Below are positions 33,851 to 38,328 of a stretch of 64,000 nucleotides of DNA, in pieces. A program made the position numbers and the translations under genes. Under the pieces are notes generated by a model, which was not told where the DNA came from, made no database searches, and worked only from the letters and a program-made list of their open reading frames with translations. Location: NCBI GenBank assembly GCA_021323375.2, contig JAJPCT020000016.1:1-64000 (forward strand). The letters are read 5' to 3'. Positions within the stretch are counted from its first letter, which is position 1. Every line of letters begins with the position of its first letter. This DNA is from Candidatus Wolframiiraptor gerlachensis (GTDB taxonomy: Archaea > Thermoproteota > Nitrososphaeria_A > Caldarchaeales > Wolframiiraptoraceae).

Positions 33851-34765
33851 TCATAAAGATAGCTTGCGGCCGCGTCGGGGTAGGGCCCGCTCATAGACCA
33901 GTATCGTGAGGATTGTCGCGGCGGCTGAGGCGGCGATTAGTTGGAGCGTTTCATTCAGGCTTGTGAGCGCCCATGGTCTTAGGAGCATTGAGATGGCGAG
34001 CGCGATCATCAGGTAGCCCGAGAAGAGCTTTATCCTCCTCGACCATGCTTCCGAGATCCTCATTCTGCCCAAGGTGTATGCGAAGACGAGGACTATCCCG
34101 AGCATCGGCATGACATATATCATGTTGTAGAGCGCGAGGTAGATGTAATACTCCACATGGCCTATGCCGAGTGATGAGAGGAGGCTCGTATAGTATAGTG
34201 GGAAGCCCGGGGTGCAGGCGAGCTCGTATATGTTGACTGTGAACGCGAGCGCGGCCGAGCCAGCCGCTAGAGCCCCTAGAGAGCTTACGCGTAGAAGCCT
34301 TCTAGCGGATCTACCAACTTGGGCGAGGCTTTTCTCGGATGCGCCTAGGGATGGGCCGAGTCCATGGGCGAAATAGTCCTTCACGTTCAAGGCTCCAGCA
34401 GCCGCCACCATTATCATCACTATGAGGAAGAATGGGCCAAAGCCGCTCAGTATCCTGAAGACGTTGAGTACCGCGGCCATAAAGAAGAAGTAGGCGAGAC
34501 CTGAGATGAGGACGAATATCCCGCCGACTAAGAGGATGCGGGCGCGATCCCTCGCGTATATCAGGATACTGAGGAGGAATGTCAGGATGTAGAAGGCGCA
34601 GGGATTAACGCTATCCATCCCTGCGATCACGAGCGTGAGCCAGAGGAGGTTCTCGCCTGCGTTGCCGTCATCAAGCTGAGCCCCCATAGGGCCTAGCATA
34701 AATGCTAAGGATAACATGATAAGAACCGCTGCGAAGAATCCCCAAGCGATCCGCGAAGCCTTCAA
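33851..34765 (-). CDS. CcdA/DsbD-like membrane thiol-disulfide transporter
   Basis: DSVNPCAF and ELACTPGFP paired Cys motifs in multiple TM helices. Confidence 0.8.
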   Translation of the reverse strand: MKASRIAWGFFAAVLIMLSLAFMLGPMGAQLDDGNAGENLLWLTLVIAGMDSVNPCAFYILTFLLSILIYARDRARILLVGGIFVLISGLAYFFFMAAVLNVFRILSGFGPFFLIVMIMVAAAGALNVKDYFAHGLGPSLGASEKSLAQVGRSARRLLRVSSLGALAAGSAALAFTVNIYELACTPGFPLYYTSLLSSLGIGHVEYYIYLALYNMIYVMPMLGIVLVFAYTLGRMRISEAWSRRIKLFSGYLMIALAISMLLRPWALTSLNETLQLIAASAAATILTILVYERALPRRGRKLSL

Positions 34766-34814
34766 CCTCGATGACTTTTCTCAGCCATGGGATCTAGAAA
34801 ATTTTTCCATTCAG

Positions 34815-35297
34815 TTAGAGGTCTTTCTCGGCGCGATAAGCATCCCTGCCACGGCCATAATAATCCTTCAGCCTAGATGCGAAGGTGTATCCGAGTGACT
34901 TATAGAGCCTTATCGCGGGCTCGTTATCAACCGCCACCTCTAGGATCGCCCTCTCGCATCCGAGCTTCCTGAACTCGTTCTCGAGGCTTTTCAGGAGGGC
35001 TGCGCCGACGCCCCTTCTCCGGAAATCCGGCCTAACATCAAGCGTGTAGACATGGCCCACGACTCGGCCGCCGATCTTCTCAACTCTTCCTATCGCTGAG
35101 CCCACTATTTCGCCCTCCCCCGTAACAGCCTTCAAGGGGATGGAGCTTGGATCTATCAGGAGAAGTCTTAGAAACTGTTTCGAGTAGGCATCCCTGCCGA
35201 AGCAGGTTCTCTCCAGTTCATACATCCTCTCGAGATCCTCTAGGCTCGCCTGCTCGATCCTAATGCTCCTCGCTGGGCTCACGTAATTCATCAGCAT
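34815..35297 (-). CDS. rimI: GNAT N-acetyltransferase (RimI/Ard1-like)
   Basis: LDVRPDFRRRGVG, LEVAVDNEPAIRLY and YY..G.DA motifs. Confidence 0.85.
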   Translation of the reverse strand: MLMNYVSPARSIRIEQASLEDLERMYELERTCFGRDAYSKQFLRLLLIDPSSIPLKAVTGEGEIVGSAIGRVEKIGGRVVGHVYTLDVRPDFRRRGVGAALLKSLENEFRKLGCERAILEVAVDNEPAIRLYKSLGYTFASRLKDYYGRGRDAYRAEKDL

Positions 35298-35349
35298 GCC
35301 TTATATGATTCTATACTTCTCATCAAATACTTTAAGCCTTTCCTCTGAC

Positions 35350-35549
35350 ACGTCCCCCTCTTGTGATGCTTCTCTAGCCACCTCTCCCGTAGTGATCCCT
35401 GCGGCTATCGAAGAGTGTATCCCTTATGATATTTCCTTTTTTCTGTGATCCAGAAAATATGTCTTCTCATCACATATATCCTATCTCCCCGCTTATCAAG
35501 CCCATCCCCAGAACTGTTTTCTACACCCCTTGCATATCACTTGAACCAT
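35350..35549 (-). pseudogene. Possible decayed small Zn-ribbon gene
   Basis: ATG 35549 gives MVQVICKGC...; another frame gives KRGDRIYVMRRH...HKG; interrupted by stops and shifts. Confidence 0.3.
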
Positions 35550-35764
35550 CCCCATTTTCGGGATGGTCCTTAATGAATAAGTGGGGACCCGTGTCGGGGA
35601 TATGTGGGGATGTTATTGCCCGGGGTTCTAGCCGGGATTTTTGTCCTCTAGAATCTTGGCGGGATTGAGGGTTTCGCCAGGGCTTATGCCCAGCATTTTA
35701 GGGGAATCCATGATGAGGGCGCTATGTGGCGAGCTCAGGAGCCTGCTTGAGGGAGGTGATATGG

Positions 35765-36635
35765 ATGGCTAGGATCTATTACGTTGATGTCACGATTCCC
35801 AGTGATAGGAAGAAGATACATGCGGGTCTTTGATGGTGGCAGGGTTTTCAGGGTTGGGAGGCTGAGCGAGCTGGAGGATGCCAGCGAGGTGTTCATTGAC
35901 GCGCTGTTTCCGGAGCCATATGAGGAGGTTCTTGAGCTGTTGAGGAGGGGTTAAGGCGTATCTGCTGAAAGATATTACCAAGTTGAGGAAGCTGAGGATG
36001 GAGAACAACTTGAAGAAGAGTGATGAGAATGATGCCATGCTACTTATACGAATTTCAAAAGAGAATTTTAGACCACTAGCGATTGAAGAACTGAGGCTCA
36101 GGATGCGAATGGAGCCGCTGATAAACAAATATGAGCGGATTATGCGATGGAAGAAGACCTTAAAGAGGCTGGTAAAGCGGGTCTTGATTGCAATTTCAGG
36201 GAGGTAGTAAGGCTTATGAACGCGGATAGACAGAAGATATCTGAGGAGGTTATTCGACAGGTGACCTCTCTTCCCATCCATGGTGAGGTTTATAGGAGGG
36301 CCTGCGAAATCCTCGGCGTTAAGAGGAGCGCCGAGCTAGCCATACTGGCGGTAAGGCTACCACTTCATCTACCGATGGTAAGATTGAAAGGACTATTGGG
36401 ATTGATTCCGGGCGGAAATGGAGGGCGATATAACCATGAACTGAGAGCACATATTGCAAGCTTTGCAGCAACTCTCTACATGAATGCTAAAAGACATGTG
36501 AATGCTTCGGATAAAGTTGCTGAGGTCGTTAATTGTCTACCAAAGAAGATGGCATTATGCAAGTTACAGCTAATGACTGTAAAGGCGTTACGGATAGCAT
36601 ATATTATGACTGTGAAGCCGCTGGTCGGCGAGTAG
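35765..36635 (+). pseudogene. IS110/Nop-like RuvC-fold protein (about 290 aa when three frameshifts are repaired)
   Basis: SD GGAGGTGA; MARIYYVDV...HAVFDG...VFIDALF...KKSDENDA...coiled coil...EILGVKRSAELAILA...LKGLLGLIPGGNGGRYNHELRAHI; frameshifts near 35825, 35949 and 36178. Confidence 0.7.
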
Positions 36636-36758
36636 TAAAAGCCATAAAGACTGGTGAGGTTACACCCGGATTCCCACCATGGAGGATTTCATGAATCCAT
36701 GGATGATTTTATATGGTTCCCCTGCCGGTCTTTATGGCTACGAGGACTCGTCGGCCAG
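36621..36758 (+). ncRNA. Candidate structured RNA (bridge/seek-RNA-like stem-loop)
   Basis: Nested stems CTGGTCGGCGAGT/ACTCGTCGGCCAG, GCCATAAAGACTGG/CCGGTCTTTATGGC and CCATGG/CCATGG enclosing an internal loop; followed by a T-run. Confidence 0.55.
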
Positions 36759-36896
36759 TCCCACCCCCTAATCCCCTTTTTTATTAATTAAGTCTAGACT
36801 GGGAAGGGGAATGAAAACGAACCTAGATCTTAGTCTACTACTGAATTTTTATCTGGAAGAATTACTCAAGTTTGTTACTCGTGGGGTGCTGGAATT

Positions 36897-37685
36897 TTGG
36901 GGCCGCCGCTAATAATAGTGAAGCTCGGGGGATCTTTGATAACGGATAAGAGCCGGAGGTTCTCGCTAAACGCTGATGTGGTTAAGAGACTTGGAAGGGA
37001 GCTCGCCGAGGCTGTCAAGGAGTCGGGCGTGGATCTGATAGTCGTTCATGGAGGCGGATCATATGCTCATCCAATTGCTAAGGAGTACTTGGTCTCAGAG
37101 GGCTTAAGGAGCAAGGGGGGCTTGAGGGGCTTCGTCGAGACATCGAGGGTAGTTCGGATGCTCTGCCTCGATGTTCTCTCAAACCTTGTCGAAGGCGGCT
37201 TGATGGCAATATCAATACCAGCATCATCAATATTCACGACGAGATCAGGTAGGATAAGCACCTGTAATCTCGAGCCAGTATTTTCGGCATTGAGGCTTGG
37301 CCTCGTCCCAGTAACATCTGGCGATGTGGTTTTTGACCGGGATTTGGGGTTCACCGTCCTATCCGGAGATGAGATAAGCTCTTACCTGGCTGTCAGGCTC
37401 CGGGCGAAGAGGCTCATTTACACCATGAATGTGGATGGGATTTATGTTAGGGACTGGACGACCGGGGGAGTCAAGGTTGCCGAGGAATTCTCCCGGGGCA
37501 TGAGCATAGTGCCAGTCGGAGGCGAAGTCGAGGATGTCACGGGCGGGATAGCGAGGAAGATAGAGGAGGGCTTCATGGCAGCCGAAGCCGGAGTCGAGGT
37601 GCTATTCATCAATGGATTAGCCGAGAATAGGTTGAAGAATGCTATTTTGGGGCTGCCTGTTCCCGGGACGAGGCTTAAGCCTTAG
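36897..37685 (+). CDS. ipk: Isopentenyl phosphate kinase
   Basis: KLGGSLITDK, VHGGGSYAH, GDVV..SGD and DVTGG motifs. Confidence 0.9.
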   Translation: MGPPLIIVKLGGSLITDKSRRFSLNADVVKRLGRELAEAVKESGVDLIVVHGGGSYAHPIAKEYLVSEGLRSKGGLRGFVETSRVVRMLCLDVLSNLVEGGLMAISIPASSIFTTRSGRISTCNLEPVFSALRLGLVPVTSGDVVFDRDLGFTVLSGDEISSYLAVRLRAKRLIYTMNVDGIYVRDWTTGGVKVAEEFSRGMSIVPVGGEVEDVTGGIARKIEEGFMAAEAGVEVLFINGLAENRLKNAILGLPVPGTRLKP

Positions 37686-38328
37686 CCTGCTGGACCCTTA
37701 TCTGGAGGAATTCCTCGGGCTTAAGCTTCTCAGAGAGCTCGGGCGTCAGCTCACCCCTCTCCATCAAGACCCTCCTAGCCAGATACCAGAAGGCGTATGG
37801 TAGGGCCAGCCTCCCCCTATTATTTACCGGGATCACGAGATCGACGTTCGAGATCATGTTATCCGTGCTACACATGGCTATAACGGGGATCCGGGCTATC
37901 TTCGCCTCCATCACCGCCTGGTTATCATATCTCGGGTCGGAGACGAGAACAAGCCCCGGCTCTAAATATGTCTTAAGGCTCGGGTTGGTGAATGTGCCGG
38001 GCTCAAATTTCTCCACTATTGGTATGCAGCCCGTGTACTCACAGAACTTCCGGACTGGGACAACGCCATAGACGTGGGTTGAGACGACGACCACCTCCTC
38101 GGGCCTATAATATGAGATGAACCTAGCCGCGATATTCAGCCTCTCGATAATCTTGTTCAGGTCTATAAGATAGACACCATCAGGCCTAAGCTTGAAGATG
38201 AACTTCTCCATGTGCTTGACCTTTATCTTTGAGCCTATGTAGAGGCCATTCTTGATGAAGAGTTCCTGAATATTCTCCATCGAGTCTATGGATCCCTCAC
38301 TCATGCCCGCTTCCAGCCCGATAATCAA
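37675..38328 (-). CDS. rps2: 30S ribosomal protein S2 (uS2); start probably 38304 or later
   Basis: RPDGVYLIDL, FEPGTFTNP, DPRYDNQAV.EA and VIPVNNRG motifs. Confidence 0.95.
   Translation of the reverse strand: MIIGLEAGMSEGSIDSMENIQELFIKNGLYIGSKIKVKHMEKFIFKLRPDGVYLIDLNKIIERLNIAARFISYYRPEEVVVVSTHVYGVVPVRKFCEYTGCIPIVEKFEPGTFTNPSLKTYLEPGLVLVSDPRYDNQAVMEAKIARIPVIAMCSTDNMISNVDLVIPVNNRGRLALPYAFWYLARRVLMERGELTPELSEKLKPEEFLQIRVQQAKA

Follow-up and report, generated by a model that had tools for sequence, protein, structure and literature searches.

A hairpin overlapping the end of a TasR/IS110-like gene in Candidatus Wolframiiraptor gerlachensis is best explained as a dual-guide RNA specifying the insertion site of its own mobile element

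The stretch of DNA analyzed here (the window) comprises positions 1 to 64,000 of contig JAJPCT020000016.1 of the archaeon Candidatus Wolframiiraptor gerlachensis (GenBank assembly GCA_021323375.2; genome G000 in our comparisons, 1.28 Mb in 27 contigs, with archaeal gene content around the site), and our subject is an insertion within it that carries a broken protein gene and a long hairpin. Because the two flanks nearly adjoin in four relatives (G005:C47, G002:C78, G011:C28, and G008:C12), where sequence matching window positions 33900-35310 is followed within 20-33 bp by sequence matching 36885-38298, we delimited the insertion to 35311-36884, between an acetyltransferase-like gene and an isopentenyl phosphate kinase-like gene; on the right, the boundary could fall anywhere in about 36875-36884. 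Similarity among copies defines a conserved core at 35553-36788. On its plus strand lie a pseudogene for a RuvC/coiled-coil/Nop-like protein (35765-36635), recognized from its open reading frame (ORF) pieces and from intact paralogues and spread over three frames by at least three frameshifts (pieces at 35765-35833, 35784-35954, 35983-36207, and 36147-36635), and a nested hairpin (36620-36759). The window copy is thus a decayed member of its family, with a frameshifted gene, an intact hairpin, and an eroded right half of the insertion target. Judged by sequence comparison, the best explanation of the hairpin is that a TasR/IS110-like mobile element carries it as its only dual-guide RNA, specifying that element's own insertion site.

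The hairpin itself is far above chance. Positions 36600-36790 fold into a single nested structure of -68.1 kcal/mol, compared with a mean of -48.2 (standard deviation 4.2) for 200 shuffled sequences, none of which equaled it (z = -4.72). An earlier note on this DNA had described a nested hairpin overlapping the stop codon, and the fold bears this out, with the TAG at 36633-36635 lying within the span. From its base upward, on the plus strand, the proposed guide RNA consists of stem A (36620-36633 paired with 36746-36759), a conserved 6x6 internal loop (36634-36639 and 36740-36745), stem B (36640-36655 with 36724-36739), a large internal loop with a 5′ strand, loop A (36660-36673), and a 3′ strand, loop B (36706-36719), and a terminal stem (36675-36683 with 36696-36705). 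The large internal loop is the putative guide loop. Downstream, a conserved pyrimidine-rich tail with a T-run (36760-36788, T-run at 36777-36782, plus strand) closes the core, and in the tail alignment all 25 hairpin copies finish in a C-rich stretch followed by TTTT(T), likely a transcription stop. Since the hairpin spans the stop codon and the T-run follows it, the guide RNA would probably be the 3′ end of the gene's own transcript.

BLAST within the window's genome located 26 hairpin-like places, of which 21 complete copies were aligned and 5 truncated ones left out. The RNAalifold consensus of the 21 has 28 pairs, 10 of them with compensatory changes on both sides. Two stem variants (types 1 and 2) occur in the genome with the architecture unchanged, type 2 being represented by 8 copies, one of them behind an intact gene on contig C5. 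Across the copies the stems and the 6x6 loop are kept and both strands of the large loop are different in each; the smaller of the internal loops (AGUAAA/ACGAGG) does not vary, and none of the flanks matches it. In other genomes, 22 of the 29 loci returned were examined, the remaining 7 being partial matches or lying at contig ends, and a long nested hairpin overlapping the ORF end was found in 21 of the 22, distant homologues included, the last one being partly outside the cut. These hairpins share the architecture but differ in stem sequence, and again they contain two variable loop segments, each about 9 nt long and set between constant bases. Conservation beside homologues, on which the earlier note had made its proposal depend, is thus borne out. 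All loci read had one hairpin per gene copy, although no search for tandem repeats was made.

A search of 34500-38000 against Rfam (E up to 1) returned nothing on the hairpin and no C/D family there. Its sole match was the C/D-box sRNA sR52 at 35991-36034 inside the pseudogene (19 bits against a gathering threshold of 50, E = 0.85), probably a chance hit. Inspection by eye recognized no K-turn in the 6x6 internal loop. We also noted solo hairpins lying singly without an adjoining gene in the same genome (C10:17576-17720, C16:72545-72696, C18:58430-58571, and C22:92006-92148), which may be gene-less derivatives resembling miniature inverted-repeat transposable elements that could use the protein in trans; the one on C16 (C16_72) has an exact 10-nt match to its loop A 330 nt upstream.

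None of the four ORF pieces of the window gene matched Pfam, and the protein family was characterized through intact paralogues of 286-296 aa on contigs C1 (294 aa), C7, and C4 of the same genome, in which the region has 42 DNA matches and 29 protein-profile matches. The family is patchy and multicopy, occurring in 31 of 76 genomes of the class with up to about 30 matches per genome, and 58 representatives were found at E ≤1e-3 among 1.84 billion proteins. All 157 homologues retrieved were nameless or called "hypothetical protein", none had a Pfam domain, and NCBI names indicate Thaumarchaeota metagenome-assembled genomes. In an alignment of 14 sequences, three from the window's genome and 11 full-length ones from the 58 representatives, four aspartates (D8, D50, D92, and D95) are conserved (at least 90% or invariant), as are Y227 and R232. 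No serine is conserved, the stretch between the GL(T)P and Y-x-H-R-L-R motifs included. The AlphaFold2 model of the intact paralogue C1a (mean predicted local distance difference test score, pLDDT, 91.2; predicted TM-score, pTM, 0.82) has an alpha/beta N-terminal domain, a long coiled coil, and nothing but helices beyond residue 110. Its best Foldseek matches were 9mty, TIGR-TasR (E = 3.1e-7), and 8wt6, IS621 (E = 5.2e-6). VIA-align gave Z 16.1 for 9mty (257 residues aligned), 15.7 for each of ISCro4 and IS621, 13.2 for TasH on residues 114-291, 6.7 for the RuvC structure 4ld0 on residues 2-110, and 6.4 for Nop5 (3pla). The family sequence profile matches 9mty at E = 2.2e-4, while matches to IS110 families stay below threshold: 12 bits against a cut-off of 29 (E = 0.18) for PF01548 (DEDD_Tnp_IS110), 14.7 bits against 140 (E = 0.013) for NCBIfam NF033542 (IS110), and nothing for PF02371 (Transposase_20) in the Pfam search. 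On the structural matches and the profile match to 9mty, the modeled protein is assigned as a RuvC/coiled-coil/Nop-domain protein about equally distant from TasR and the IS110 recombinases, and the acidic residues and the fold together predict a RuvC-like nuclease domain.

Focusing more specifically on the guide loop, we compared both of its strands with the site into which each copy is inserted. For the window copy, loop B at 36709-36718 (TTATATGGTT) agrees in 9 of 10 positions with the ten chromosomal bases that immediately precede the insertion and form the left target half, 35301-35310 (TTATATGATT, plus strand), and the match ends exactly between 35310 and 35311, a junction set independently by the unoccupied loci of relatives. 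As a nine-base segment (about 36710-36718, TATATGGTT, plus strand), loop B has the same sense as 35302-35310 with 8 of 9 positions shared. The corresponding loop A segment (about 36662-36670, ACACCCGGA, plus strand) matches, as its reverse complement, the bases that come next in the empty G005 allele (..TTATATGATT GCGGGTGTGG..), where the right half-site reads GCGGGTGT. When the whole 3,640-bp G005 locus was scanned on both strands in all 9+9 registers with overlaps of 0-3 nt, the best tandem site was this junction (TATATGATT/GCGGGTGT, 16/18), and 3 of 300 shuffles reached 16 anywhere in the locus. The matching parts of the loops are the basal parts of both strands.

Two intact paralogues in the window's genome, C1a and C4, have contiguous empty sites in relatives (G002, G008, and G011 for C1a; G005, G002, and G008 for C4). 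The C4 loops match the empty site at 18/18 in G005 (GGGAAATAGGTTTAAGCC; 0/300 shuffles), 17/18 in G008 (0/300), and 16/18 in G002 (2/300), and the C1a loops at 17/18 in G008 (1/300) and 16/18 in G011 (2/300). Every significant best site of the two copies was located at the junction. In a side observation at one of these loci (L102, G002:C7, about 2850-2880), the empty C4 site has some 10 extra bases (..GAAATAGAAGGCATAGGTTTAAGCC..) resembling the right end of the insertion in the window's genome (..AGAGGCATAGGT/TTAAGCC), which could be a footprint of excision or of cleavage and repair.

By comparison, the complete genome of another genus (G018) provided young copies, five of the eight loci fetched there being one subfamily with 87-96% identity over 1.3-1.6 kb. 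In this subfamily both loops read AUGAC-[10 nt]-ACGU, the initial 5-6 nt of each being specific to the copy; the opening 9 nt of one loop recur in sense on the left side of the element, and those of the other loop recur reverse-complemented on its right. The copies' own half-sites scored 18, 18, 18, 18, and 17 of 18, whereas cross-copy controls had a maximum of 16 and none of 20 reached 17. For one of them, L080, the empty site is contiguous in G015 and G031 (CATCCTTAAATAATCT), the occupied form being CATACTTAA, then the element, then TAAATAATCT. The loops thus vary together with the insertion targets, as the earlier note had thought they might. Several copies have tRNA genes directly downstream (L091-L093 in G040 and L080 in G018), some apparently with introns; a tRNA scan of four loci reported only the tRNA-Thr beside L080, about 20 nt from its right half-site.

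An automated test without hand-picked loops asked for an exact 9-mer of one hairpin half upstream together with the reverse complement of a 9-mer of the other half downstream, and was applied to 17 of 20 loci from three genomes, three being left out where the hairpin finder chose tRNA genes. Both-sided exact 9-mers were present in 8 of 17 own pairs compared with 20 of 272 cross pairs. Parsing loops from minimum free energy structures had mis-parsed most hairpins and found 1 of 17 both-sided, and hairpin halves were used instead. Every copy examined has its own distinct loops, matching its own site as scored copy by copy. The gene lies in both orientations relative to the target, three and three among the readable copies of genus g4: the left half is matched by loop B in L077, L079, L080, C1a, C4, and the window, and by loop A in L078, L081, and L089 (in L089 only the upstream loop A match is clear). 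From these matches it is very probable that the loops specify each copy's own insertion site.

Several results weigh against this reading or limit it. In the window the right half-site is eroded beyond recognition by a 10-nt deletion and substitutions, so the match there depends on a relative's allele, and C1a in G002 scored 14/18, a value reached by 216 of 300 shuffles and not significant. At the occupied loci of the window's genome, where fixed segments of 13 type-1 hairpins were compared with the flanks (the 8 type-2 and three further type-1 copies being left out), 3 of 13 copies scored at least 18/20 against 2 of 156 cross-copy pairs, and the other ten scored like controls, including the intact C7_29 at 15/20; the non-matching copies may be old, or their boundaries may lie beyond the 3 kb and 1.2 kb searched. 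The control background of the automated test was 7%. Unique filler DNA, spanning 0-320 nt to the left and 38-792 nt to the right, separates the half-sites from the core, which is predicted by no simple transposition model. The spacers are flanked by GG..CC in this genome and by AUGAC..GACGU in genus g4 instead of the box C (CCA) and box D (UG) that the available text gives for TIGR guides. Finally, the reading has no account of how copies of up to 96% identity each come by loops that fit their site.

The earlier note had placed the target elsewhere, at the element's own left end or promoter, and its 18-mer at 35692-35709 (plus strand, inside the conserved upstream frame) is indeed there: GGATTCCCA with ATGATTTTA matches AGCATTTTAGGGGAATCC at 35692 in 15 of 18 positions, the best tandem 9+9 pair inside the element. 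The match is nevertheless no better than expected, since 65 of 300 mononucleotide shuffles of both strands reach at least 15/18 in the same 1.3 kb; unlike the hairpin it falls within chance, and probably arose by it. The two 9-mers draw on apical parts of the loops, and three bases of each sit in the conserved paired terminal stem. The site belongs to a conserved coding frame (..ILGESMM..), and its homologue stays GGGGAATC(C/A) in C1a and C25, whose loops differ strongly, so the loops do not co-vary with the upstream site among homologous copies. What does hold is the kind of geometry that had been proposed, a dual guide like those of bridge RNAs and tigRNAs, whose loop strands match two abutting half-sites on opposite DNA strands, only at the insertion site. 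The earlier note was right about the structure and the kind of geometry and wrong about the target.

Taken together, the comparisons make it reasonably probable, with less assurance than for the loops alone, that this is a multicopy archaeal mobile element with a single dual-guide RNA for its own insertion site, a nuclease or homing mode included. The element would encode one protein of about 290 aa, with a RuvC-like nuclease domain, a coiled coil, and a Nop-like RNA-binding domain, which on its model is a probable distant relative of TIGR-TasR and of the IS110/IS621 bridge recombinases. Its target would take the form of the loop B segment followed by that of loop A in reverse complement. In the left half, where loop B has the sequence of the top strand, its partner would be the bottom strand; in the right half, loop A would pair with the top strand. 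At the target center the guide segments overlap by 1-3 nt. Because the element sits exactly between the target halves, the empty site would be recognizable and the occupied site would not. The protein-RNA complex would open the empty site at the overlap, and the element would then be copied or captured there, a mode of RNA-guided homing or insertion by a TasR-kind nuclease following homing-endonuclease logic rather than IS110-type bridging of donor and target. Transcription, RNA binding, cleavage, and the chemistry of insertion are all steps that we infer.

The alternative that survives best keeps the same relation of guide and target but makes the protein an IS110-type recombinase, which would recombine the target with a circular donor junction conservatively, bridged by the RNA, over a short common core. 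We consider it unlikely, but it is a serious rival because the fold lies equally close to TasR (Z 16.1) and to the pair IS621 and ISCro4 (Z 15.7) and because the guides overlap at the target center, as the left and right target guides (LTG and RTG) of IS621 do on the core in the available description. The weak profile matches to PF01548 and NF033542, a TAA on either side of L080, and the position of the RNA in the right end, likewise described for the IS1111 group, also favor it. Against it, those profile scores are well under the curated cut-offs, and there is a single guide loop with no candidate for the second, donor-binding loop. The half-sites adjoin unique filler instead of conserved termini, and insertions occur in both orientations. 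The stretch corresponding to the IS110 catalytic serine, placed by motifs rather than by residue-level superposition on IS621, has no conserved serine, and the C-terminal half of the model is all-helical, where IS110 recombinases, as described in the text available, carry a beta-sheet at the serine site.

The same sequence matches would be left if the hairpin acted as DNA, a single-stranded or cruciform element end pairing with the target in the manner of the subterminal hairpins of IS200/IS605, for matches alone fit RNA and DNA alike. Correction of a DNA-DNA heteroduplex would moreover be a way of rewriting the loops from the target, and a TnpB-like ORF stands behind the same leader module at C17:100591-101277. 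We regard this as improbable, since the closest structural matches are Nop-domain proteins that bind RNA and were solved with their guide RNAs, and since the element has no gene for an HUH/Y1 transposase. Moreover, the hairpin is set back from the right boundary by 38-792 nt instead of forming the end, and the T-run after it is expected of a transcript end.

The proposal of the earlier note, in which the loops guide the protein to the leader 18-mer for autoregulation or end recognition, fares worse and is very improbable. It can appeal to the 15/18 match, which has the same order of halves as the real targets, and to the catalytically dead TasR and TasA that serve as RNA-guided repressors according to the accessible part of the TIGR preprint; besides the shuffles, the use of stem bases, and the constancy of the site in copies with different loops, the family retains the four acidic RuvC residues. 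Least credible of all, and almost certainly wrong, is a merely structural hairpin (terminator, mRNA stabilizer, or protein-binding site) with unconstrained loops and coincidental flank matches, which would suit the T-run, the faster evolution of loops than stems expected of any structured RNA, and the lack of a flank match in most old copies of the window's genome, but not scores of 16-18/18 exactly at independently defined junctions in seven of eight copy-by-relative comparisons (14/18 in the eighth), the own scores of 17-18 in G018 against at most 16 in 20 cross pairs, or copies 96% identical over 1,616 bp that differ at 9 of 11 variable loop positions.

These last copies bear on how an element with a guide RNA for its own site could come to fit a new one. 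The two differ in the apical stem as well as in the loops, and each fits its own site at 18/18. Point mutation followed by jumping seems too slow, and the sequence pattern suggests that loop A, the apical stem, and loop B were exchanged together as a cassette; the guide could be rewritten from the target, exchanged, or picked from a diverse pool. A tentative idea, which we hold possible but doubtful, is that the element programs itself, its cassette being rewritten from the halves of the new target, or swapped for a fitting one, at each insertion. If true, self-programming would be a natural acquisition route for dual spacers, and the family would stand as a living intermediate linking TasR nucleases with the bridge-RNA transposons of IS110.

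The ends of the core (35553 and about 36788) had been considered as element ends joined by an ATTTT-like core; this was dropped, the empty-site junctions being at 35310/35311 and about 36884. Outside the core on the left lies filler DNA (35311-35552), known by its similarity to C13 and a small-gene fragment. At the left edge, 35312-35423 (112 nt) is 82% identical to C13:3505-3616 and single-copy in six relatives (69-82% identity), and thus looks like a piece taken up from some conserved gene. The minus strand of 35487-35552 preserves part of a small gene present in many copies (..HIEKHEAVCDLCGG..VQVICEGCRKRFWG, then stop), whose four cysteines give it a zinc-ribbon-like appearance, and the fragment breaks off at the core boundary. 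In many cases this gene is found 170-730 bp upstream of the leader module and points away from it, and its other copies include C1:61493-61822, C15:3452-3745, C2:5-316, C17:100224-100460, and C26:6538-6840. On the right, the filler between core and chromosomal flank (36789-36884) had no other copy in the genome by BLAST, with weak similarity in the paralogue C25 only. Among other copies, some cores are 5′-truncated, and short flanking repeats were seen (TAA at L080, the 7-nt ATAGGTT at C4, and C(C/G)GAGC at C1a); alignments of flank against filler for long target-site duplications gave weak matches only. In the right filler of L079 (G018), beginning 29 nt beyond the T-run, is a stretch that agrees at 9/10 with loop B from L081 in reverse complement, which looks like a fossil half-site, old flank DNA carried along from an earlier location.

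At its left end the core begins with a non-coding or leader module (35553-35764, plus strand) that starts with CATTTTCGGGATGG and is marked by a sharp start of similarity in 8 copies. It contains most of a short upstream frame (35632-35772, plus strand; ..ILGESMMRALCGELRSLLEGGDMDG, then stop), supported by its translation and by third-position changes between copies, which overlaps the gene start (ATG GAT GGC TAG against ATG GCT AGG) and is conserved as coding. The frame is longer in copies C7 and C25 (81-107 codons) and is possibly a second small protein or a means of translational coupling. Elsewhere in the window's genome, at C17:100471-101277 (locus L013), the leader module (CATTTTCGGGATGG.. 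with the short upstream frame) precedes the TnpB/OrfB-like ORF (100591-101277), and hence it seems to be a shuffled promoter/leader cassette common to two kinds of genes for RNA-guided nucleases.

A full-text literature search, which did not cover the supplements of the TIGR papers with further Nop families, turned up no published description of this kind of element. A TasR-like protein, an IS110 lifestyle, and a guide geometry overlapping on the core come together in this family, which makes the proposed link between Nop nucleases and bridge-RNA transposons directly testable. Of practical interest are the compact protein (about 290 aa) and a single guide of about 140 nt reading about 18 bp on both strands.

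Four kinds of known systems offer comparisons. The omega-RNA nucleases TnpB and IscB (IS200/IS605) and the homing endonuclease genes follow the selfish logic proposed here, in which a nuclease recognizes the uninterrupted site that its element disrupts, and in TnpB/IscB, as in this element, guide and nuclease gene overlap at the 3′ end of the latter. Their protein fold is unrelated, however, and the guide of an omega-RNA is the flank past the element end, whereas both guide strands of the present element are internal and have to be adapted to the site. Archaeal box C/D sRNAs with Nop5 share with it a Nop-like domain, a coiled coil, and two guide strands in a bulged, pseudo-symmetric arrangement; the structural match is weak (3pla, Z 6.4), no C/D family of Rfam was found on the hairpin, and their target is rRNA, while the proposed target here is DNA, the element's own insertion site.

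Closer to the element are the IS110/IS1111 elements with their bridge (or seek) RNA (IS621, 8wt6; Durrant et al. 2024, PMC11208160), mobile elements that, in the text available, encode their own structured RNA as this one does. The strands of an internal loop are described there as pairing with the target's bottom strand in its left part and its top strand in its right part and as overlapping on the central core, the arrangement proposed here, and the RNA of the IS1111 group, as described, shares its place in the right end. To the similar fold (IS621, Z 15.7) are opposed profile scores far under the cut-offs, and the conserved serine and beta-sheet module that were not seen in the family alignment and model, the serine being equated without residue-level superposition. 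IS110 elements are further described as having two guide loops, one for the target and one for the donor, and one target common to all copies of an insertion sequence, whereas the present element has one loop and each copy its own guide and target; copies of one insertion sequence also share their ends and orientation, unlike copies with filler ends in both orientations.

Nearest in overall design is TIGR-TasR (9mty; Faure et al. 2025, PMC12045711), which in the text available has, like the element protein, a RuvC domain, a coiled coil, and a Nop domain, and is its best structural and profile match, although sequence similarity is marginal (E = 2.2e-4 by profile). The acidic residues are conserved in both, and an archaeal host is common to both. 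As described, the tigRNA resembles the element guide in having two short spacers on opposite strands for neighboring halves of one site, with a spacer length matching the roughly 9 nt seen here, and the available part of the TIGR preprint also locates stem-loop guide units within tas genes or at their 3′ end, similar to the element. TIGR guides occur in arrays and, in that description, abut; the element has one guide unit per gene, its guides overlap by 1-3 nt, and the unit itself, unlike TIGR, is a multicopy insertion. In the passages available, the natural targets of TIGR, its biological role, and its spacer acquisition are stated as open (PMC12045711; preprint). By comparison, each guide of the present TIGR relative is assignable by comparative genomics alone to a natural target, the unit's own insertion site.

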